64,000 bases of DNA from an uncultured delta proteobacterium (GTDB taxonomy: Bacteria > Myxococcota_A > Polyangia > Polyangiales > Polyangiaceae). Each line of letters begins with the position of its first letter. Positions within the stretch are counted from its first letter, which is position 1. This document shows, one piece after another, positions 41,390 to 55,836 of the stretch. A program made the translations under genes and the position numbers. Location of the stretch: NCBI GenBank assembly GCA_963716725.1, contig CAVQUB010000010.1, positions 64,001 to 128,000 on the forward strand. The letters run 5' to 3'. The notes under the pieces were generated by a model, which was not told where the DNA came from, did not search any database, and saw only the letters and a list, made by a program, of their open reading frames with translations.

Positions 41390-41653
41390 CTACGCTGAAC
41401 TCGTCGAGGTCACGACTTTCGTCGCGTCCGTGCCGAGGGCGCGTTCGCGTTCGCGTTCGCGCCGCCGCACATGCCAGATGCCCAACCCGATGAGCGTGCC
41501 GATCAGCATCAGGGGAAACAGGCTCAAGAAGATGGTGGAGCCCACGTAGGCGTCGCGGGTGGCGTTGTTCTGCGGGGTCCCGCAGACCGGGCATCCGGCG
41601 GCCACGGCCGGAGCCAAGAAGGCGAGGCAGCCCGCCCAGAGCCCGGGCCTCAT
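41390..41653 (-). CDS. Small membrane protein with CPxC motif, last gene of the oxidase operon
   Basis: Signal-like N-terminus, CPVC, one TM, ATGA overlap. Confidence 0.75.
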   Translation of the reverse strand: MRPGLWAGCLAFLAPAVAAGCPVCGTPQNNATRDAYVGSTIFLSLFPLMLIGTLIGLGIWHVRRRERERERALGTDATKVVTSTSSA

Positions 41654-42243
41654 AGGTAGACCCTCCAGTAGAGGATCGGCCAGAGACCGACCACGAAGAA
41701 CCAATACAGGCGGGTGGCAGTGAAGAAACCGGGACCGAGCTGTCCGCGCTTCGCCTTCGCGCGCGCCGTCGCCAGGGCGAGGAGCCCAGCGACGGCGTGC
41801 AGGGCATGCGCGCCCACCAAGAGGTAGAAGAAGCTACCCGCCGGCCCCGAGCGCATGGTGAGGCCCTCGCCGATCAGGCGCACGCACTCGTAGCCTTGGA
41901 AGCCCACGAAGGCCGCGCCCAGCCCGAGCGCCGCTCCGAGCATCGTGGCCGCGCGCCCGGCCGCGACGCGGTACTCGCGGCGCGCGAAGTAGACCGCCAC
42001 CCCGCTGGCGATGAGCACGCCAGTGTTGACCGCCGTGGCCGCGATGGGCAGGCGCACTTGACCCGGTGGTGGCCAGGCCCCGGGGGTCGTGATGCGGGTG
42101 ATGGTGAAGGCGCTGATCAGCGCAGCGAAGAACATCGCCTCCGCCGCCAAGAAAATTGCCATGCCGATCACCGCGTTCGGCGCGACTGCTTCCCGCGGCG
42201 GCAGGCCGGCAGGGCGATCGACGGGCAGTGCGGCGGAGGTCAA
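41650..42243 (-). CDS. Heme-copper oxidase subunit III (paralog 2)
   Basis: FLAAEAMFF, NTGVLIASG, GAHALH, YWFFV. Confidence 0.9.
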   Translation of the reverse strand: MTSAALPVDRPAGLPPREAVAPNAVIGMAIFLAAEAMFFAALISAFTITRITTPGAWPPPGQVRLPIAATAVNTGVLIASGVAVYFARREYRVAAGRAATMLGAALGLGAAFVGFQGYECVRLIGEGLTMRSGPAGSFFYLLVGAHALHAVAGLLALATARAKAKRGQLGPGFFTATRLYWFFVVGLWPILYWRVYL

Positions 42244-42702: not shown

Positions 42703-43275
42703 TCACTTCGCGATGTAGAGCAGCGGAAACAGGAAGATCCACACCAGGTCGACGAAGTGCCAGTAGTTGGCGATGAGCTCGACGCGCTGGAGCTCTTTGC
42801 CCTCGGCGGCATCTTTGGCGACGATGCCCATGATGACCACGCCGGCGATCACGTGCACCGCGTGGAGCCCGGCGGCGGTGTAGTAGAACGACCAGAATGC
42901 GTTGGTGGTGAGCGTGAAGCCGTGGCTGATCTCCATGGTCCACTCGGCTGCCTTGACGCAGGCGAAGGTCAAGCCGCCGAGCATGGTGAACATCAGCAGC
43001 TTGGCGGCCCGCACGCCGTCTTTGCGCTCGGCCGCCTGATGGGCGAGCACGGCCGAGAGGCTCGAGCTGAGCAGCACCAGGGTGTTGAAGGCGCCTATCC
43101 ACGTGTTGGTGTTGGCGGCGTAGTCGCCAAACTCGGGGTGCCCGAGCCGGTGCATGATGTAGGAGGCCAAGAGACCGCCAAAGATCACGATTTCCGAGGC
43201 GATCAGCCACCAGACGGCGAGGCGACCGGTGGGGATGCCGGTGGCGCTGCGGGTCGTGGCAATGGGTTTGTTCAT
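42703..43275 (-). CDS. Heme-copper oxidase subunit III (paralog 1)
   Basis: ASEIVIFGG, NTLVLLSSS, GLHAVHV, YWHFVDLVW. Confidence 0.92.
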   Translation of the reverse strand: MNKPIATTRSATGIPTGRLAVWWLIASEIVIFGGLLASYIMHRLGHPEFGDYAANTNTWIGAFNTLVLLSSSLSAVLAHQAAERKDGVRAAKLLMFTMLGGLTFACVKAAEWTMEISHGFTLTTNAFWSFYYTAAGLHAVHVIAGVVIMGIVAKDAAEGKELQRVELIANYWHFVDLVWIFLFPLLYIAK

Positions 43276-44978
43276 TGCGCCGCCTCCGGCGTGGGCTCCG
43301 AGCCGTCGTCGGGCGGCTCGTCCTGGGGCCAGAAATCGCTCTCGCGCCCGGGCACCGAGTACTCGTAGGGGCCGCGGTAGACCGAGGGCAAGACCTCGAA
43401 GTTGCCATGCGGCGGCGGTGAGGCAGCCGCCCACTCGAGCGTATTGGCGTTCCAGGGGTTATTGCCCGCCCGCTTCCCGCTCTTCATGCTCTTGAAGAAA
43501 TTGTAGAAGAAGATCACCTGCGCCGCGAGCATCGCGACGGTGGCGATGGTGGCGATCATCCGGAGGTTCTGCAGGTCCGCGCGCGCGAGGTCGGGGAACT
43601 GCCGGTAGTCGTGGATGCGGCGGTGATCCCCGGCGGCGCCGGTGATGAACAGCGGGATGAAGATGAAGTTGAAGGGGATGATGGTCGTCCAGAAATGCAG
43701 CTTGCCCAGCTTCTCGTCCAGCATCTTGCCGAACATCTTCGGGAACCAGAAGGTGACGCCAGCGAAGGTCGCGATGATGGCGATGGGCACGAAGGTGTAG
43801 TGGAAGTGAGCGAGCACGAAGTAGGTGTCGTGGAAATAGATGTCCGAGCCGCTGGACCCCAGGTAGATGCCGGTCACGCCGCCGATTAGGAACTCGGCGA
43901 CGAAGGCCAGGGCCCAGAGCATGGGTGTCGTCAGCCGAATCGAGCCGCCGTAGAGCGTGGCGATGGTCACGAAAATCATCTCGGCGATGGGCACCGAGAT
44001 GAGCACCGTCGTGACCGTGAACACGTTGGCCATCCGCGGGTCGATGCCGGCCACGAACTGGTGATGTGCCCAGACGAAGAAGCTGAGAATACCCGTGGCA
44101 AAGGCCGTGTAGAGCACGGTCTTGTAGGCGAAGACCTTCTTCCGGGCGAAGACGGCGATGACGTCGATGGTGATGCCGGCCGCTGGCAGGAACACGACGT
44201 AGACCTCCGGGTGGCCGAAGAACCAGAACAAGTGCTGCCACAAGATCGGGTCACCGCCGCGGACCGGATCGTAGAAGCCGGTGCCGAACTGCTGGTCCAT
44301 GAGCAGCATGACCGCGCCGGCGACCAAGGGCCCGACGGAGCCCATGAACACGATGGTGGCCACCACGATCATCCAGATCACGACCGGGATCTGGTGCCAC
44401 TTCATGCCCGGGGCCCGCGAGTTCATCACGGTGGTCAGGAAGTTGATGCCGCCCATCAAGAAGGCGACGAACTCGAGGGCCACCGCCAAGAGCCAGAGCG
44501 TCGAGCCGGCTGGAGTGAGGCTGTATTGGTGCTTCGCCGAGAGCGGCGGATACGCTGTCCAGGCGCCGCCGAAGGCGCCGCCCGGCACGAAGAACGAGGC
44601 GAGCAGCACGAGGGCGCTGACGAGGAAGATCTGGTAGCTGAGACGATTCAGCCGCGGGAACACCATGTCGTCGCAGCCGATCATGAGCGGGATCAGGAAG
44701 TTCCCGAAGGCCGCGATCAGCACCGGCATCGCCACCCAGAAGATCATGATGGTGCCGTGGTTGGTGACCAGGGCGTTGTACTCGTTGGGCGATACCAAGC
44801 CGTAGCCAGGGACGCTCTGGCCCGGGAACCCGAGCTGCATGCGGAAGGCGTAGACGAAGAAGCCGCCGAGCAGGGCCATGGCCATGCCCGTGAACAGGTA
44901 CTGCAAACCGATGATCTTGTGGTCGGTGGACCACAGGTACTTCTTGACCCAGCCTTCTTGGGGGTGAGCGTGACTCAT
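43272..44978 (-). CDS. ctaD: Heme-copper oxidase subunit I, A-family-like, atypical proton channels
   Basis: TDHK, HGTIM, WTAYPPL, FGHPEVY, WAHH, HDTYFVLAHFHY, RR. Confidence 0.95.
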   Translation of the reverse strand: MSHAHPQEGWVKKYLWSTDHKIIGLQYLFTGMAMALLGGFFVYAFRMQLGFPGQSVPGYGLVSPNEYNALVTNHGTIMIFWVAMPVLIAAFGNFLIPLMIGCDDMVFPRLNRLSYQIFLVSALVLLASFFVPGGAFGGAWTAYPPLSAKHQYSLTPAGSTLWLLAVALEFVAFLMGGINFLTTVMNSRAPGMKWHQIPVVIWMIVVATIVFMGSVGPLVAGAVMLLMDQQFGTGFYDPVRGGDPILWQHLFWFFGHPEVYVVFLPAAGITIDVIAVFARKKVFAYKTVLYTAFATGILSFFVWAHHQFVAGIDPRMANVFTVTTVLISVPIAEMIFVTIATLYGGSIRLTTPMLWALAFVAEFLIGGVTGIYLGSSGSDIYFHDTYFVLAHFHYTFVPIAIIATFAGVTFWFPKMFGKMLDEKLGKLHFWTTIIPFNFIFIPLFITGAAGDHRRIHDYRQFPDLARADLQNLRMIATIATVAMLAAQVIFFYNFFKSMKSGKRAGNNPWNANTLEWAAASPPPHGNFEVLPSVYRGPYEYSVPGRESDFWPQDEPPDDGSEPTPEAAQ

Positions 44979-44981
44979 GGC

Positions 44982-45674
44982 TCAGGGGGCTTTCGCGCTG
45001 GCGAGCTTCTTCTGTGATTGCTCGGCGATCCAAGCGGCGTGCGCCGCGGGTGACTCGATGACGATGCGACCCGGCATCAGGCCGTGCCCTACGCCGCAGA
45101 TCTCGGCGCACTGGATGTCGAAGCTGCCGGTCTTGGTGGGCTTGAACCAGCCCTGGATGATGCGGCCCGGCACCGCGTCTTGCTTGAGGCGGAACACCGG
45201 AATGCTGAAGCTGTGCAGCACGTCGCGCGAGACCAAGTTGAAGTGGTAGGTCTTGTTGACTTCGACGTGCAGCTCGTCAGTCGTGCGGATGTCGTCATCG
45301 GTGCCGAGCTTGCCGTCCGAGCCGGGGTGCTCGAAGGTCCAGGCCCACTGCTGGGAGATGACGTTCACCTTTGCGTCGGGCTCCGGCATGGTCTGCTTCA
45401 CCGCGACCCAGACCTTGATCGCCATCACGATGATGACGATGTCGCAGGCCAAGATCATGTTGTGCGGGCGCGTGATCCACTTCTTCTCTTCCTTCTTCTC
45501 CCCGGTGATGTAGAGGGCCTTGCGACCCGCTTTCTCCTTGAATTTGAAGATGAGGTAGAAGAGCGCGCCCTGGGCGACGAAGAACCAGAAGCCGACCAGC
45601 ACCGTGATCAGCGTGATCAGGTTGTCGATCTCGGCGGCGTAGGTCGACGCTTGGGGGACGAGCCATTCAATCAT
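44982..45674 (-). CDS. ctaC: Oxidase subunit II with CuA site, no fused cytochrome c
   Basis: QQWAW, DVLHSF, CAEICGVGHGLM. Confidence 0.95.
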   Translation of the reverse strand: MIEWLVPQASTYAAEIDNLITLITVLVGFWFFVAQGALFYLIFKFKEKAGRKALYITGEKKEEKKWITRPHNMILACDIVIIVMAIKVWVAVKQTMPEPDAKVNVISQQWAWTFEHPGSDGKLGTDDDIRTTDELHVEVNKTYHFNLVSRDVLHSFSIPVFRLKQDAVPGRIIQGWFKPTKTGSFDIQCAEICGVGHGLMPGRIVIESPAAHAAWIAEQSQKKLASAKAP

Positions 45675-45823
45675 CGCGAAAGCTCCACGGACGTGTCGGG
45701 CGAGTGCTTCGGCTCGCCTGCCAGCGCGAGAACCGAGGCTGCGGCCACGTAGGCCACGAGGGCGCCGGCGGTGAGCCAGAAGGTCCACTTCGCCACGGCG
45801 TCGCTGCTGATGTCTTTTGCCAT
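45671..45823 (-). CDS. 50-aa single-TM protein (below the ORF-track cutoff)
   Basis: GGAG RBS; MAKDISSDAVAKWTFWLTAGALVAYVAAASVLALAGEPKHSPDTSVELSR; ATGA overlap with the subunit II start. Confidence 0.75.
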   Translation of the reverse strand: MAKDISSDAVAKWTFWLTAGALVAYVAAASVLALAGEPKHSPDTSVELSR

Positions 45824-45833
45824 GCCGCTCTCC

Positions 45834-46514
45834 TCACTTGGCCTGGGCGATGAACGCGGCGATGTCGCGCGTCGCCTGATCGTCGGGCAGCATCACGGCC
45901 TGGGGCCGCATCATGCCGCCGGTGGCGTCGTCCGGATGGGTGCCGCGGATGCCCTTGCGGAACCTCATGAGCTGAGTGGCGATGTACCAGTCACTCTGCG
46001 CCTGAAGGGGAGGCCCCTTGGTGCCCTCGTTGCCCTCGCCGCTCGCGCCGTGGCACGCAGCGCAGGGCTTGAAGAGGGTCGCACCGCGCGCCGGGTTTGC
46101 GTCCTTGATCTGCGCTTCAGGTCGGAAGCGGGGCATCTGCGAGACGTGCTGCGAGATGGTCTTGATGTCGCCGTCGTGGATCAGGGTGCGCGCTATGGGC
46201 CGCATCTGCATGCCCGTGATGTCGTCGGGGTGTGCTCCGCGCTGCCCACTGCGGAACTTGATCAGCTGCGCCTCGACGTACCAAGCGGGCAGTCCCGCGA
46301 TGGCCGGCGTGTTGGCAAAGCGGTTGCCGAGGCCGCTTTCGCCGTGGCACTGCGAGCAGAGCTGGTAGAGTTGCTCGGCCGAAGCGCCTGCGCCTGCGCC
46401 CGCGGGGGCGGTGTTGCACGCGGAGAGCGCGAGCAGCACGACGGCGGTGAGCGCCCCAACACAGAGTGCTCCCAGAGACCGGCGACTGTGGGTCGTCATC
46501 TGTCCAATCCGCAT
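45834..46514 (-). CDS. Di-heme cytochrome c4-like lipoprotein
   Basis: Lipobox LSAC; CSQCH and CAACH with distal Met. Confidence 0.92.
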   Translation of the reverse strand: MRIGQMTTHSRRSLGALCVGALTAVVLLALSACNTAPAGAGAGASAEQLYQLCSQCHGESGLGNRFANTPAIAGLPAWYVEAQLIKFRSGQRGAHPDDITGMQMRPIARTLIHDGDIKTISQHVSQMPRFRPEAQIKDANPARGATLFKPCAACHGASGEGNEGTKGPPLQAQSDWYIATQLMRFRKGIRGTHPDDATGGMMRPQAVMLPDDQATRDIAAFIAQAK

Positions 46515-47372: not shown

Positions 47373-48617
47373 TCAGAAGTTCTCGAACGCCAGCGATTTG
47401 TCCAGTCGCGGGTCCTTGATGGGCACCAGATTCACCTTCTGGGAGGAGAACGCGGCGGCAGCGATGAACAGCCCGAGCACACCAATGGTGCAGGTGAGGT
47501 CCATCAGGCTGAAGGGCAGATGCTCGGTGTGCATGTGCGGCTTGACCAGCCAGAACATGTCGAGCCAGTGCACGACCAAGATCCAGACCGCCCAGAAGCC
47601 AAGGCCAAAGCGATTGCGCTTCACGTGTCGCGACATCAGCCCGAAGAAAGGGATCACGAAGTTCACCGCGATCATCGCGAAGGAAACCATGCCCCACGGC
47701 CCGTGGGCGCGCAGGTGGTACCACTCCGTCTCTTCGGGGATGTTGGCGTACCAGATCAGCATGAACTGGCTGAAGGCGATGTAGGCCCAGAAGGCCGTGA
47801 ACGCGAACATCATCTTGCCGATGTCGTGGTAGTGCTCACTGGTCACGCTCTTGGCGAGGCGGCCGTTCTTTTGCAGCCACATCAGCGTGAGGGCGAAGAA
47901 CGAGTGGAAGCTGACCACCGCACCGGCGAAGTAGTAGACGCCGAAGATGGTCGAGTACCACTTGGGCTCCAGCGTCATCAGGAAGTCGATGGACGCGAAG
48001 GTCAGCGTCAACGCCAAGAGGATCATGCTCGGGGCACAGAGGCCCTGGAGCTTCGAACGGATTTCTGGCGCCCCGGTCTTGTCCTGCTCCACGCTCTTCG
48101 AGAACAGAAAGCGCGAGAGCACTCCCCAGAACACGAAGTAGATCACTAGGCGGACGACGAAGAAGTCCTTGTTGAGGTAGGCCGCCTTCTTGTGCAGCAT
48201 GTGGTCGGCCTGCATCTTGTTGCCGTCGGCCCAGATGTACAGCGTGGTGTCACCCATCAGGGTGGGGATCACGATGGGCAGCGAGAGCAGCGCCAGCATG
48301 GGCATCGTCGAAGCGAGGATCTCCCCGACGCGGCGGACCACGGTGCTCCACTTGGCGTTGACCAGGTGTTGGAGCACGACCCACCACAGGGCGCCGAGGC
48401 CGATGCTCAGGATCCACGCGTACGCCGTCAGGTACGAGTGCATGAACTGAGCCTTGTCGCCGGTGAACCCCAGGAAAAGGCTTGCGCCGAGGGCGACGGC
48501 GCCGACGCCGCCGGCGATCCCCATCAGCTTCGCAGCGAGGCCATCCATGCGGATGTTGTCGCCGAAGCCCCCGTCTTTGGCTGTCTCTGTCGTCTTGGCC
48601 ATCTCAGGGATCTCCAC
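47373..48617 (-). CDS. actF: Alternative complex III subunit F
   Basis: IDFLMTLEPKWYSTIFG, FSQFMLIWYANIPEET. Confidence 0.93.
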   Translation of the reverse strand: MEIPEMAKTTETAKDGGFGDNIRMDGLAAKLMGIAGGVGAVALGASLFLGFTGDKAQFMHSYLTAYAWILSIGLGALWWVVLQHLVNAKWSTVVRRVGEILASTMPMLALLSLPIVIPTLMGDTTLYIWADGNKMQADHMLHKKAAYLNKDFFVVRLVIYFVFWGVLSRFLFSKSVEQDKTGAPEIRSKLQGLCAPSMILLALTLTFASIDFLMTLEPKWYSTIFGVYYFAGAVVSFHSFFALTLMWLQKNGRLAKSVTSEHYHDIGKMMFAFTAFWAYIAFSQFMLIWYANIPEETEWYHLRAHGPWGMVSFAMIAVNFVIPFFGLMSRHVKRNRFGLGFWAVWILVVHWLDMFWLVKPHMHTEHLPFSLMDLTCTIGVLGLFIAAAAFSSQKVNLVPIKDPRLDKSLAFENF

Positions 48618-49826
48618 TCACTTCAACGTGGCGCGTTCGGCGTCAGTCAGCTCACCCACCGGGGCAGCTTTGGCCTTTTGCAGGGCGCGTAGGTAGAGGA
48701 CGACGGCCCAGCGATCGTTCAACGAGATCTGCGAGGCGTAGGGCGGCATGTTACGGACGCCGTGGGTGACGACGTCGTAGAGCTGTCCGACCGGCATCTG
48801 TCGGAGGTAGTCCATGCCCATGTTGGTCGGCGGCACCCAGGTGCCCTCGGCGAGCGTCATGGCGCGTTGCGAGACCGGCCCGTCGCCGTTGCCGCTGATC
48901 CCGTGGCACGGTGCGCAGAAGATCTCGAAGCGCTCCTTGCCCTTGGCCATGCTCGCGGCATCGACGCTGAAAGCTTGGGGGAAGGTCCGGGCGAACTGGC
49001 CGTCGACCTTGCCTGCGGTGAGGTGCTCGTCGTCCGGGTGTTCGTCCATGGCGACAGTGCCCGGTTCGGGAGCACGCATCGCCATTTGGTCGGGGAAGAG
49101 CGGGTTTGGTTGCTGAGCTTGGTACTTCACCTGCCAGTCCATGTCGCCGACCGCGTGGATGCGGGTCTCCGTGGTCTTCGCGGCGCGCGCCTTGGCGATG
49201 AAAGCAAAGGGCACCAGCGCGAGGACGGCCACGACGGCTGCGGTGAGCAGCAGCGGCTTGGGCAGGCGATCGGAGGTCGAGCGGTCCTCGTGGACGAGGT
49301 CCACGGCGACCGGGTGGGTCCCGTCGAGCAGCTGCTGGGTGTCGTTCGCGTCGAACTTCTCGTCGCGACGCTCGATGAAGAGGAAGAAGCGATCGTCCGT
49401 GGCACGGCCGAAGGCCTGCAGGTGATCCAGGGGGTGCGCCGGCTGCGGCAGGTTGTTCAAGATGAGCATGCCGAAGAGCGCCGCGAAGGCGCTAAAGAGG
49501 ATGGTCACCTCGAAGTAGACCGGCACGCTGGCCGGGATGCTCCACATTGGCTTGCCGCTGGAGATGAACTTGTAGTCCACCGCATTGGTCCACCACTGCA
49601 GCCAGATGGCCGCACCCAGGCCGAGCAGAGCGGCGATGAGCACGAGCCAGGGCAGGGCGGTCATGCGAATGCCCATGGCCTTGTCGATGCCGTGGACAGG
49701 GAAGGGCGTGTACGTGTCCCATTTGGCGTAGCCCGCGTCGCGCACCTTCTTGCAGGCCGCGACCAGCGCGCTCGGGGTCTCGTACTCCGCCAACAGGCCG
49801 TGCAGATCGTCGTCGTGTTCGCTCAT
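48618..49826 (-). CDS. Fused ACIII ActD-ActE (DUF3341 plus monoheme c)
   Basis: DTYTPFPVHG, SGKP, DMDWQ, CAPCHG. Confidence 0.9.
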   Translation of the reverse strand: MSEHDDDLHGLLAEYETPSALVAACKKVRDAGYAKWDTYTPFPVHGIDKAMGIRMTALPWLVLIAALLGLGAAIWLQWWTNAVDYKFISSGKPMWSIPASVPVYFEVTILFSAFAALFGMLILNNLPQPAHPLDHLQAFGRATDDRFFLFIERRDEKFDANDTQQLLDGTHPVAVDLVHEDRSTSDRLPKPLLLTAAVVAVLALVPFAFIAKARAAKTTETRIHAVGDMDWQVKYQAQQPNPLFPDQMAMRAPEPGTVAMDEHPDDEHLTAGKVDGQFARTFPQAFSVDAASMAKGKERFEIFCAPCHGISGNGDGPVSQRAMTLAEGTWVPPTNMGMDYLRQMPVGQLYDVVTHGVRNMPPYASQISLNDRWAVVLYLRALQKAKAAPVGELTDAERATLK

Positions 49827-49836
49827 GGTCGGACCC

Positions 49837-51204
49837 TCAGTGGTCGTCCCCGTGCGCATGCGCGGAGGGGTGGAAGGCCTTCACCTCGCTCATGGCGACC
49901 ATGGGCAGGTAACGGCAGAACAGGAGGAACAGGGTGAAGAAGAGGCCGAAGCTGCCAGCCAGCAGCGAGAAGTCCCAGAAGGTGGGCTTGTAGTAGCCCC
50001 AGCTCGACGGCAGGAAGTCCCGCGAGAGGCTGGTGATCACGATCACGAAGCGCTCGAACCACATGCCGATGTTCACGAGCACGCCCACCACCAAGATGAC
50101 CCAGGGGTTGGTGCGCATCTTCTTGGACCAGAACACCTGGGGCGTGACCACGTTGCAGAAGATCATGCACCAGTACGACCAGGCATAGGGACCGAGCGCC
50201 CGGTTGAAGAAGGTGAACATCTCGTAGTCGTTGCCGCTGTACCAAGCGGTGAAGAACTCCATCGAGTAGGCGTAGCCAACCATCATGCCCGTCGCGAGGA
50301 TGATCTTGGCCATCAGCTCGAGATGCCCGATGGTGATGATGCGCTTGAGCCCGAAGAACTGACGCGCCGGGACGGCGAGGGTCACGACCATGGCGAAGCC
50401 GCCGAAGATGGCGCCGGCCACGAAGTAGGGCGGGAAGATGGTGGCGTGCCAGCCGGGCAGCTGCGCCGTGGCGAAGTCGAATGAAACGACCGAGTGCACG
50501 CTGAGCACCAGCGGCGTGGCGAGTGCGGCCAGGATCAAGTACGCGCGCTCGTAGCGGTGCCACTGGCGGCTCGATCCACGCCAGCCCATGGCCAGGATGC
50601 CATAGGCGATCTTGCGACCCTTGGTCGTCGAGCGGTCGCGGAAGGTCCCAAAGTCCGGGATCATGCCCATGTACCAGAACAGGGTGGACACCGTGAAATA
50701 GGTGCCGACCGCGAACACGTCCCACTCGAGTGGGCTCCTGAACTGCGGCCACATGCTCATCTGGTTCGGCAGCGGAAACATCCAGTAGGGCAGCCAGGGC
50801 CGGCCGACGTGCAGTCCCGGGAAGATGCCGGCGCAGATGACCGCGAAGATGGTCATGGCCTCGGCGAAGCGGTTGATGGCGGTGCGCCAGTTCTGACGCA
50901 GCAGATACAGGATGGCGCTGATCAGCGTTCCGGCGTGGCCGATGCCGACCCAGAACACGAAGTTCACGATCGGCATGGCCCAGAACACTGGGTTCATGTT
51001 GCCGAAGATGCCGATGCCCGACCACATCAGCCAGCCGATGCTCACGCCGAAGATGGAGAGCAGCGTGAGGGCGATGCCGAAGGCGATGTACCAGCCGCGG
51101 GGCGGCCTTTGCACCTCGGCGACGCGGGCGACGTTGTGGGTGATCTTCGCGAACGCGTTCTCACCTTGCGGCGGGGCGTCGAAGGGATTGACGGCGATGG
51201 CCAT
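49837..51204 (-). CDS. actC: Alternative complex III subunit C (NrfD family)
   Basis: [34 protein letters not shown]. Confidence 0.95.
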
Positions 51205-51207
51205 GGC

Positions 51208-54255
<3,048 letters not shown>

Positions 54256-54268
<13 letters not shown>

Positions 54269-54900
54269 GCTGAGCAATCCTCGGGAGGGTTGATGTTGTT
54301 CGCCTTCTTGAACTCGGCGCCGAAGGTCGGGCTGGGCGCTTGCCAGCTCATGTTGGTCGCCTCCGCAGGCGGCCGGAGGTGCGGAGCGGGGTTGCGGTGA
54401 CACTCGAGGCACCAGCCCATGCTGAGCGGCTCGACCTGGGAAACCTCTGCCATCCGATCGACCCGCCCGTGACAGCTCACGCAGCCGATGCCGCGGGTCA
54501 CGTGCGCGCTGTGGTCGAAATAGACGTAGTCCGGCATGTCGTGGACCTTCACCCACTCCACCGGCTTGCCCGTCTCGAAGCTCTGGCGGATGAGCTCGAG
54601 TTTGTCGCTCTTGCCCCGGACGCGAGCGTGACAGTTCATGCACGTCTCGGTCGGCGGCGTGGCGGCGTGCGCCGCCCGATCGACGGTGTTGTGGCAGTAG
54701 CGGCAGTCGATGCCGAGCTCGCCGGCGTGCAGCGCGTGGCTGTACGCGACCGGTTGCTTCGGCTGATACCCGACGTCGGTGGTCTTTGGGGAGAACCCGT
54801 ACCAGACCAGTGCGGTCAGGTAGACCGGGGCGACGCCGAGCGCGACGCCGGCGAGCTGCCGGGTCTTATTGGCCCATCGCGGGAACGTGAATGAATTCAT
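54256..54900 (-). CDS. actA: Alternative complex III pentaheme cytochrome c
   Basis: Five CxxCH motifs; PKQPVAYSHALHAG. Confidence 0.95.
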
Positions 54901-55145
54901 CGGTTCGACCCTGAGCTGGGTCGTCCGGCGTGCGTGGCGCACGGCACCGGACGAGGAGGTGATCGGGGCGCCCCCCGGTAGCACGAGGCGGGGATGGAAG
55001 GCGACAGAAGAGACGCACCTTTGCCGACGAAATGACGGACGTCTGTCGCATGCGAGCGCGAGACCCCCCAAGTCGTCACGGCCCGCCCACGCCGCGCGGC
55101 GAGGTTATGCGAGAGTCCCCTCGGGTTGTAAAGCTAGAAATCCAC

Positions 55146-55790
55146 CTAGTCGGCCAGCGATCGCAGCCGGCCGAGGTCCGAGACGCGTACGGTCCGGCCG
55201 CGCGATAGCGCGCCGGCCTCGCGCAAATCAGCGAGGGCCCGGGACAGCGTCTCGGGGCGCATGCCGAGCATGCCTGCCAGCACCCGGTGTGGGGTTTCGA
55301 GGGTCTCTCCGCCGTCCTCCGCTTCGGAGTGTTGCAGCAGAAAGCGCGCCACACGCCGGACCGCGGACCCCTGCAGCGCCTGGCGCTCTCCCACGCGTCG
55401 CGCGGCTTCTTCGAGCGAGTAGACGAGCGCTGCGCCCGCCGGGGTGTTGCGCGAGCCAATCCACGCCTCTGCAGCTGCTCGATCGAGGGTGCAGTACGCG
55501 ACGTCGGTCAGCGCCCACACTTGATAGGGCATCGGCTGATTGAGGAGCAGCTCGAGGCCCAGCATGCTGTCCGGGCCGCGAACCGCGCACGAGACCTCGG
55601 CTCCCGACGCCGCCGTCGAGCTGAGCACGACCTGCCCTCGGCGAAGGTAGAGCGCGGCGTCGGGGGTCACCCCCTGTTGCAGCAGCACACTTCCGGACGC
55701 GCGCCGGGTGTCCCTGAAGGGACAATCGTGCACTCCCGAGCGTAGAACGAGAGCGCAGGTTTGACATCTGACCGGCAACGAGGCGTTCAT
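55146..55790 (-). CDS. Crp/Fnr-family regulator, FNR-like Cys set
   Basis: N-terminal CQTC-x10-C, central VAYC, recognition helix PETLSR. Confidence 0.88.
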   Translation of the reverse strand: MNASLPVRCQTCALVLRSGVHDCPFRDTRRASGSVLLQQGVTPDAALYLRRGQVVLSSTAASGAEVSCAVRGPDSMLGLELLLNQPMPYQVWALTDVAYCTLDRAAAEAWIGSRNTPAGAALVYSLEEAARRVGERQALQGSAVRRVARFLLQHSEAEDGGETLETPHRVLAGMLGMRPETLSRALADLREAGALSRGRTVRVSDLGRLRSLAD

Positions 55791-55820
55791 TGGGGAGCCG
55801 CTGCACTCGATTGTTGCACA

Positions 55821-55836
55821 ATTGACGATGGTCAAT
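55821..55836. promoter_or_regulatory. FNR-type box
   Basis: Perfect ATTGAC-GATG-GTCAAT between divergent genes. Confidence 0.8.

Follow-up and report, generated by a model that had tools for sequence, protein, structure and literature searches.

A member of a conserved lysine-less clade of A-family haem-copper oxidases with additional membrane glutamates, encoded in an uncultured Polyangiaceae genome

How can a haem-copper oxidase (HCO) of the A family supply its active site with protons when the lysine of its K channel is missing? The question is raised by coxI, a gene in a 64,000-nucleotide stretch of DNA from an uncultured member of the Polyangiaceae (contig CAVQUB010000010.1 of assembly GCA_963716725.1, positions 64,001 to 128,000; hereafter the window). 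The gene occupies positions 43272..44978 of the minus strand, on which all the window genes described below lie, and encodes a lysine-less subunit I of 568 amino acids (aa). We conclude that the enzyme is very probably an O2 reductase and, as far as its sequence goes, most likely an oxidase of ordinary function with an unusual and conserved proton-input architecture. On balance, we lean slightly towards reading it as a functional A-family cytochrome c:O2 oxidoreductase of the aa3 type, in which the proton route of the reductive phase has been re-lined, not lost.

The open frame of coxI is free of stops over all 568 aa, and its product scores 430 bits against the Pfam COX1 profile (PF00115, cut-off 34.8) and 584 bits against the NCBIfam CtaD equivalog (TIGR02891), which is under the cut-off of 670.75 for that model. 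In a phmmer search of all chains in the Protein Data Bank, the top match of CoxI is the Rhodobacter sphaeroides aa3 oxidase (1m56_A, E 1.3e-122), and ba3 chains match at only E ~1e-13. The AlphaFold2 (AF2) model has 12 transmembrane (TM) helices, a predicted local distance difference test score (pLDDT) of 91.1 and a predicted template-modelling score (pTM) of 0.91. The alignment to 1m56_A has no gaps across helices IV, VI, VII and VIII, with a constant offset of 28 between the CoxI and the R. sphaeroides (Rs) numbers (CoxI number = Rs - 28); residues are given in Rs numbering below unless CoxI or CoxII is named.

The core of the active site is intact. All six histidine ligands of haem a, haem a3 and CuB are retained (H102, H284, H333, H334, H419 and H421, corresponding to H74, H256, H305, H306, H391 and H393 of CoxI) and are invariant across 73 aligned sequences. 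The motif H256-P-E258-V-Y260 of CoxI (44199..44213) brings together a CuB ligand, the D-channel glutamate and the cross-link tyrosine (Y288 = Y260), the covalent link itself being a prediction from sequence. The D-channel residues D132 (D104 in CoxI), N121 (N93), N139 (N111), N207 (N179) and E286 (E258) are likewise retained, as are the HD (383-384 in CoxI) and RR (453-454 in CoxI) motifs.

The surroundings of this core are altered. In helix VIII, the alignment gives T359->I331, I361->E333, K362->M334 and S365->V337, so that two adjoining codons (43977..43982) encode a new Glu at position 361 (E333, 43980-43982) and a Met in place of K362 (M334, 43977-43979). In helix IV, a Glu replaces S197 (E169, 44472..44474) and is flanked by A172 and F173 in place of the D-channel serines S200 and S201; in helix VI, I271-D272 (44163..44168) stand for S299 and H300; and M335, which adjoins the CuB ligands, has become Q307. 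Helix IX contributes a third membrane Glu at the position of L390 (E362 of CoxI, 43893..43895), and helix VII carries a stripe of hydroxyl residues, T287, T291, T295 and S299 of CoxI (Rs 315, 319, 323 and 327; 44082..44120), at the spacing i, i+4, i+8, i+12. An earlier note on this DNA, which relied on an alignment by eye, had reported the intact six histidines and the GHPEVY, HD and RR motifs, the changes T359->I, K362->M, S365->V and S299->I, the glutamates at 361 and 197, Ala and Phe at 200 and 201, WAHHQ for WAHHM, and the conservation of D132, N139, N207 and E286. The gap-free alignment to 1m56_A bears out this whole set and adds N121 to the residues kept. Both of the new glutamates that the note counted are present, but it missed the third one, in helix IX, along with the helix VII stripe and the changes in subunit II described below.

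We examined how far these features are shared in the best 120 homologues (74-100% identity) among 5.8 billion proteins, our clade sample, in which the named proteins come from metagenome-assembled genomes (MAGs) of Polyangiaceae, Myxococcales, Sandaracinaceae and similar taxa. Lys362 is present in none of them (Met in 112, Leu in 7, Thr in 1), and E197, E361 and Q335 are present in every one, as are Ala and Phe at positions 200 and 201 and the retained E286, Y288, D132, N121, N139 and N207. Position 299 is Ala, Ile, Gly or Cys throughout, and the three K-pathway positions S299, T359 and K362 are non-polar or hydrophobic in 120/120, with the counts listing the one Thr at 362. Compared with 69 K-containing representatives, the clade is set apart by E390 (119/120, vs Leu, Met, Thr or Val), T319 (120/120, vs Ala or Ser) and T323 (120/120, vs Ile in 69/69); S327 is found in 118/120. 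Further features that distinguish it from the K-containing set include K281, W355, H452 (just before the RR pair) and R473 of CoxI, among others. Asp or Glu at position 300 is also universal in the sample (120/120) and was rejected as a novelty of the clade, given that it is common in K-containing enzymes as well. With this degree of conservation in the best 120 homologues, the substitutions are not due to chance.

Among 1.84 billion representatives at 50% identity, the clade consists of one full-length representative (P0122, 979 bits), P0123 and fragments; past it, the scores fall to ~490 bits and ~45% identity (next relatives <=47%), so that the clade is tight and well separated. A distribution scan over one genome per species returned 80 loci, among them 18 core-clade subunit I genes (L004-L021) at 68-78% best-segment identity. 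Lys362 is absent from all 18 and Glu197 is present in all 18; Glu361 is present in 17, the exception being L016, with Ile. This sole core member without E361 also lacks T315, T323, T437 and W383, which indicates that these positions vary together. Position 390 is Thr in three core loci (L004, L010 and L017). Deeper relatives at 51-59% identity (L022, L023, L042 and L044) also lack the lysine and have Glu or Asp at 197, with neither Glu361 nor the T319/T323 pair; Glu390 is present in L042 and L044. A further variant, L087 in genome G082, has Gln for Glu at 361 (helix VIII I-A-Q-M), and that genome holds a second COX1-family gene of ~390 bits; second PF00115 matches of about this score occur in G082, G125 and G153-G155.

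The first part of the question is whether such an enzyme reduces O2 at all. According to Murali et al. 2024, O2 reduction in the HCO superfamily requires the Tyr cofactor, and the characterised O2 reductases use CuB; the window enzyme has both the Tyr residue and the CuB ligands. The NO reductase (NOR) families of the superfamily (cNOR, qNOR, eNOR, bNOR, sNOR, gNOR and nNOR) have no cross-link Tyr and have altered ligands, namely a Glu ligand or FeB, or Asp for His in gNOR (PMC11214002). The window enzyme keeps the Tyr and all three CuB histidines, and we rejected its membership in a NOR family.

The genomic setting points in the same direction. Among 151 Myxococcota genomes (149 of high quality), 42 contain a clade member, and in 34 of these it is the sole match to the window CoxI at E<=1e-20; most of the other genomes hold a K-containing A-type enzyme of 36-46% identity instead. 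The lysine-less enzyme is the single PF00115 match in G016 (100% complete), G050 (95%, 2 contigs) and G152 (a 2.9-Mb chromosome-level Longimicrobiales MAG), and whole-genome profile searches for cytochrome bd (PF01654) gave no match in these three. That three near-complete genomes have this enzyme as their only HCO and gave no cytochrome bd match leads us to infer a working O2 reductase rather than an NO reductase. Haem A synthase was found in the window genome (G000) and in G016 and G050, the two of these three that were searched for it.

The earlier note had proposed a different substrate, NO or peroxide, and an enzyme of this kind (an NO reductase or a peroxidase-like one) could draw on three observations: intramembrane glutamates lie near the active-site side, as in NORs; the residue beside the CuB ligands, M335, is Gln throughout the clade sample; and A-family oxidases are able to reduce NO slowly (Murali et al. 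2024). We nevertheless consider another main substrate very improbable, given that the cross-link Tyr, the three CuB histidines, CuA and the D channel are all retained, that the three genomes just described have no other HCO and no detected bd oxidase, and that the window genome already holds a separate, Tyr-less, NOR-like HCO. This second HCO is present in the window genome (84% complete) and in its congener G122 (98%), in both of which the cytochrome bd search likewise gave no match; the residual COX1 profile matches are 21 bits in G000 and 37 bits in G122. In the window genome it is encoded on contig C6 (L002, 216798-218159; 534 aa), and in L002 as well as its counterpart L091 in G122, G-H-P-S-Q-Q replaces the Tyr motif. 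Immediately upstream of L002 is a gene for a subunit II of the CuA type. By its sequence, this HCO, which is conserved in the congener, looks like a member of one of the B-family-derived NO reductase families.

To place the clade, we built two phylogenies, one with FastTree (134 rows) and one as an IQ-TREE quick tree (58 rows), both rooted on the Tyr-less HCO of the window genome, which forms a very long branch. A 12-row lysine-less clade holding the window protein was recovered in both trees with support of 100 (SH-aLRT 100), and, in line with the suggestion of the earlier note that the coordinated changes mark a distinct subfamily, it stands apart from its next relatives. It belongs to a starred set that also includes K-containing enzymes of Acidobacteria, Binatia, Poribacteria and Gemmatimonadota (helix VIII S-A-I/V-K) and another lysine-less group. 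The distribution of the Lys state over the trees needs 5-6 changes, at least 3 of which are forced by the starred branches, and a residue other than Lys occupies position 362 in 57/150 of the nearest 50%-identity representatives; loss of the lysine is therefore recurrent in the A family. For the clade itself, the loss would most simply be secondary if the root lies outside it, the root being insecure. Other lysine-less lineages in the sample carry no acid at 197.

The same sample contains other departures from the canonical channels. A large group of long A-family proteins (~650-850 aa; P0149, P0150, P0175, P0183, P0187 and others), which forms a tree clade of its own, has Gln at 362 and, in most members, Glu at N207 and an altered N121. 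P0158 and P0251 have Trp at the Glu286 position and Ala or Val at that of Lys362, with the D-channel entrance kept. In the lysine-less P0268, Glu at 197 is combined with Ala at 286, as if the D-channel Glu may have moved naturally out of helix VI and into helix IV.

How does the clade compare with what has been described? With the canonical A1 aa3 oxidases (R. sphaeroides 1M56; Paracoccus denitrificans 1AR1), the window enzyme shares the 12-helix fold, the metal ligands, Tyr288, Glu286, the D-channel entrance, the Mg-site HD, RR and a CuA subunit II. It differs from them in the hydrophobic residues at K362, T359 and S299, Ala/Phe for S200/S201, the glutamates at 197, 361 and 390, the helix VII Thr stripe and Gln335, and also in having Asp-His for Met-Pro before RR, two 5-TM COX3-like subunits and a separate dihaem cytochrome c. 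The C-family cbb3 and B-family ba3 oxidases are working O2 reductases with a K-type route that has no Lys and is lined by Ser, Thr and Tyr, plus a subunit II Glu in the B family (PMC8780969, PMC11214002). These have no D channel, whereas the window enzyme keeps both the entrance and Glu286, and their similarity to it is far lower; its cross-link Tyr sits in helix VI, the location found in both the A and the B family.

Lysine-less enzymes within the A family are already in print. Degli Esposti and colleagues described bacterial family-A COX1 proteins with a hydrophobic residue for the K-channel Lys and with the COX2 entry Glu replaced, first in acidophilic iron oxidisers and Thioclava (bioRxiv 10.1101/2020.03.01.968255), and also classed the 'modified' A2 rus-operon oxidases of acidophilic iron oxidisers as lysine-less. 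A table of 2021 from the same authors covers K-channel variation over about twenty bacterial subclades and marks two A1-type subclades as 'K-channel: no, KC', one comprising Elusimicrobia, Candidatus (Ca.) Calescamantes and Methylacidiphilaceae and the other Oligoflexia (PMC8239418). As in our clade, a non-protonatable residue stands for the Lys in these catalogued enzymes, and many have lost the COX2 entry Glu; hydroxyls at the 'KC' positions of helix VII are a likeness at only some of the sites, as set out below. The Calescamantes HR19 row (S291->F, K354->T, T351->F) has the pattern of L023, from Ca. Calescibacterium, which falls inside the 12-row clade (SH-aLRT 100). In the window enzyme, the equivalent of P. 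denitrificans K354 is Met334, and E286 is kept, which makes it A1 type. The 'KC' columns in the Table for Fig. S7 of PMC8239418 (CcoN S240/S244/H247/Y255) correspond to Rs 312/316/319/327 by our own spacing-based mapping, which is not that of the authors; at these positions the window enzyme has A284, V288, T291 and S299, that is, hydroxyls at 2/4.

The clade differs from these catalogues in that positions 197, 361, 390 and 323 and the His and Asp of subunit II are not among the columns of the accessible tables. Thus, in answer to the doubt of the earlier note as to whether the clade had been described, lysine-less A-family oxidases, including that of Calescamantes, are catalogued, but the set of glutamates that marks this clade is absent from the tables seen. 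No Myxococcota enzyme of this type appears in the accessible text or tables of Degli Esposti; in the literature on K-channel oxidases we found no Myxococcota paper and, for Gemmatimonadota, only the papers of Degli Esposti; and a literature search for biochemistry of this clade found none. Degli Esposti reads the lysine-less forms as ancestral, whereas our trees put the clade next to K-containing 'SAIK' enzymes, a placement compatible with secondary loss provided that the root is outside.

Subunit II holds further evidence on the proton route. The coxII gene (44982..45788; probable start Met39 at 45674) matches PF00116 and encodes an intact CuA motif (His + C-x-E-x-C-x3-H-x2-M). In its second TM helix (TM2), His109 (45462-45464) is followed seven residues later by Asp116 (45441-45443), and both are present in 19/19 core-clade loci. 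The entry Glu of the K channel, at the start of TM2, is kept in 46/47 loci with a K-containing subunit I; the aligned Glu101 (45486-45488) is Glu in 3/19 core-clade loci, the window among them.

In this clade, the canonical K-pathway lining has turned hydrophobic, at S299, T359 and K362 of subunit I and at the entry Glu of subunit II. In the reading towards which we lean, the pore below haem a3 would still be a proton route, now lined by the helix VII hydroxyls T315, T319, T323 and S327 together with Glu361 of helix VIII. Protons would enter from the negative (N) side near Asp/Glu300 and Lys309, and Glu390 of helix IX and the His...Asp pair of CoxII TM2 may take part, so that the new route would be of the carboxylate/hydroxyl kind, 'KC-like' in the terms of Degli Esposti. 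The D pathway would still serve pumping, with its upper part rebuilt through the changes S200A and S201F and through the gain of a second Glu, at 197, level with Glu286. What the sequences show is the substitutions, their conservation, the clade and its standing as the sole oxidase found in some genomes; O2 reduction, and above all the new route, is our inference from them. Counted in residues from the N-side limit of the respective AF2 helix, the depth is 9 for E333 of CoxI (end of helix VIII), 6 and 10 for T291 and T295 (start of helix VII) and 11 for E362 (start of helix IX); by these counts, the four are at similar depth. On a helical wheel, residue 361 would point ~100 degrees away from 362, towards helix VII, in agreement with the joint variation of Glu361 and the threonines of that helix. 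The order of the helices used here is anticlockwise seen from the positive (P) side, as Iwata and colleagues are said to have reported in 1995.

Several points weigh against this route. The orientation of E361 towards helix VII depends on that helical-wheel argument and on the helix order attributed to Iwata and colleagues. E361 is dispensable in places, being Ile in L016, Gln in the G082 copy and absent from L022, L023, L042 and L044, which are also without T319/T323. The window CoxII itself has a Glu at the aligned entry position. Nearly all clade members come from MAGs and are known as sequences. RNA-library contigs from two metatranscriptome runs of one study (104-178 nucleotides, 0-2 differences, depth 2-5) fall on coxI, the coxII/coxI junction and the cytochrome c/coxII junction, but they are too sparse for a claim of transcription, and DNA carry-over is possible. 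Finally, given that E361 is absent from the deeper relatives, Glu/Asp197 is the oldest trait tied to the loss of the lysine in this lineage, which favours an oxidase with a single input channel.

In that main rival, the K-type route would be gone and all chemical and pumped protons would pass through the D channel, with Glu197 beside Glu286 letting this channel serve the reductive phase; the arrangement would have its counterpart in the B and C families, where a K-analogue is the only channel used. We regard it as rather unlikely, although several observations speak for it: Glu or Asp at 197 is common to the whole 12-row lysine-less clade, including the members without E361, T319 or T323; the A/F pair at 200/201, without exception in the clade sample, shows that the upper D channel was rebuilt, and the entrance of the channel is invariant; in the model, E169 and E258 of CoxI are 13 and 14 residues deep, counted from where helices IV and VI start on the P side; and P0268, with Glu197 and Ala286, suggests that both positions reach the same cavity. 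A single channel, however, leaves unexplained the strict fixation of E361, E390, the helix VII Thr stripe and the CoxII His/Asp in the core clade, and other sampled lysine-less lineages lack an acid at 197. Moreover, K362M mutants stall in the reductive phase even though their D channel is intact.

The new buried acids might instead form no proton path at all. E333 and E362 of CoxI and His109/Asp116 of CoxII would then be structural or would make up a cation site at the interface of subunits I and II, and protons would arrive via other waters or the D channel. Three or four ionisable residues do lie at similar membrane depth on the neighbouring helix VIII, helix IX and CoxII TM2, and a strict proton relay would be expected to tolerate less well the replacement of E390 by Thr in L004, L010 and L017. 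We judge this explanation improbable: any contacts among the acids are presumed, there is no basic partner or known metal motif, and E361 varies together with the hydroxyls of helix VII rather than with subunit II, where the Asp is the older trait and is found even in members that lack E361. A broader proposition, which we put forward tentatively as a possibility, spans the re-lined route and the single channel: the clade would be a family-A oxidase from nature that sustains O2 turnover and proton pumping without a basic residue in the second input route, either via an acid/hydroxyl path displaced to the side of helices VII and VIII (Glu361, Thr319, Thr323 and Ser327) or by taking all eight protons through the D channel with stacked Glu197 and Glu286.

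The oxidase genes form a module that is conserved in the clade and consists of genes for a dihaem cytochrome c, CoxII, CoxI and two COX3-like proteins. The dihaem cytochrome c gene (45834..46514) was found by tblastn directly upstream of coxII in 18/20 core-clade loci (L004-L021 and L026); L018 has no upstream DNA. The two COX3-like genes (42703..43275 and 41650..42243), assigned by profile and context, both encode 5-TM subunits. The ATG of the first overlaps the coxI stop in an A-T-G-A junction (43272-43275), which suggests translational coupling.

Upstream of the module in the window lie genes for alternative complex III (ACIII; 47373..55071), identified by profile matches and position: ActA (54256-55071), ActB (51208 to ~54240), ActC (49837-51204), ActD plus a cytochrome c (48618-49859) and a candidate ActF (47373-48617), which has no family match and is placed by position alone. 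The oxidase genes thus follow actABCDEF on one strand, as in the ACIII-linked caa3/aa3 oxidases of the Rhodothermus marinus and Flavobacterium johnsoniae type; the F. johnsoniae COX1 is tabulated with a normal K channel (PMC8239418). The earlier note spoke of an intact operon, and the cluster is real, but ActB changes frame near 52,735-52,745: one frame extends to ~52,745 and another starts from ~52,735, with the molybdopterin-like N-terminal part in the open reading frame (ORF) 51266-54643 and the Fe-S part in ORF 51208-52722. This is an apparent single-base frameshift, which may be an assembly error or real. Supply of electrons by ACIII, also proposed in that note, is plausible for this genome but not clade-wide. 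Apart from this window, ACIII genes are directly upstream in L019 alone among the 16 clade loci whose DNA extends 4 kb or more beyond the cytochrome c gene on its upstream side, and the other 15 lack them there; with adjacency in 1/16 informative loci, unlike in the ACIII-linked type, we rejected it as a feature of the clade. A gene for a Crp/FNR-type regulator (cNMP-binding + HTH_Crp_2; 55146-55835) directly upstream of ActA is a candidate oxygen-responsive regulator of the cluster.

The core-clade records come from Myxococcota, Archangiaceae, Polyangiales, Gemmatimonadaceae, Gemmatimonadales, Longimicrobiales, Bradymonadia, Bdellovibrionaceae, Ca. Eisenbacteria, one Puniceicoccaceae isolate and one mislabelled MAG; the clade is widely transferred across Myxococcota, Gemmatimonadota, Bdellovibrionota and others. 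The named matches are MAGs except for 'Puniceicoccaceae bacterium K14' (L016), the variant without Glu361, and no characterised organism carrying a clade member was found among them. One core-clade locus, L017, comes from a MAG whose record title reads Klebsiella pneumoniae; given that this oxidase shares 68% identity with the window enzyme, the title is probably a binning or labelling error. The window DNA itself was seen in biofilter, wastewater, sediment and groundwater metagenomes of eight studies.

The finding also bears on annotation. In NCBI records, many clade members go under the name 'cbb3-type cytochrome c oxidase subunit I', even though they belong to the A family and have a subunit II of the CuA kind; the name is a fallback applied to proteins that score below the CtaD equivalog cut-off.

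For the oxidases themselves, the surprise is limited by the fact that lysine-less A-type enzymes, including the Calescamantes one with the K-site pattern of a clade relative, are already in print (PMC8239418). Still, mechanistic models of aa3 oxidases take Lys362 to be essential, and a large, conserved natural clade, the sole oxidase found in some genomes, apparently works without it. The clade is thus a ready-made test of what the K pathway must provide. If the broader proposition above is true, Lys362 and its proposed role in electrostatic gating would be dispensable in the A family, and the clade would offer a defined group of substitutions with which K362M might be rescued in model enzymes.

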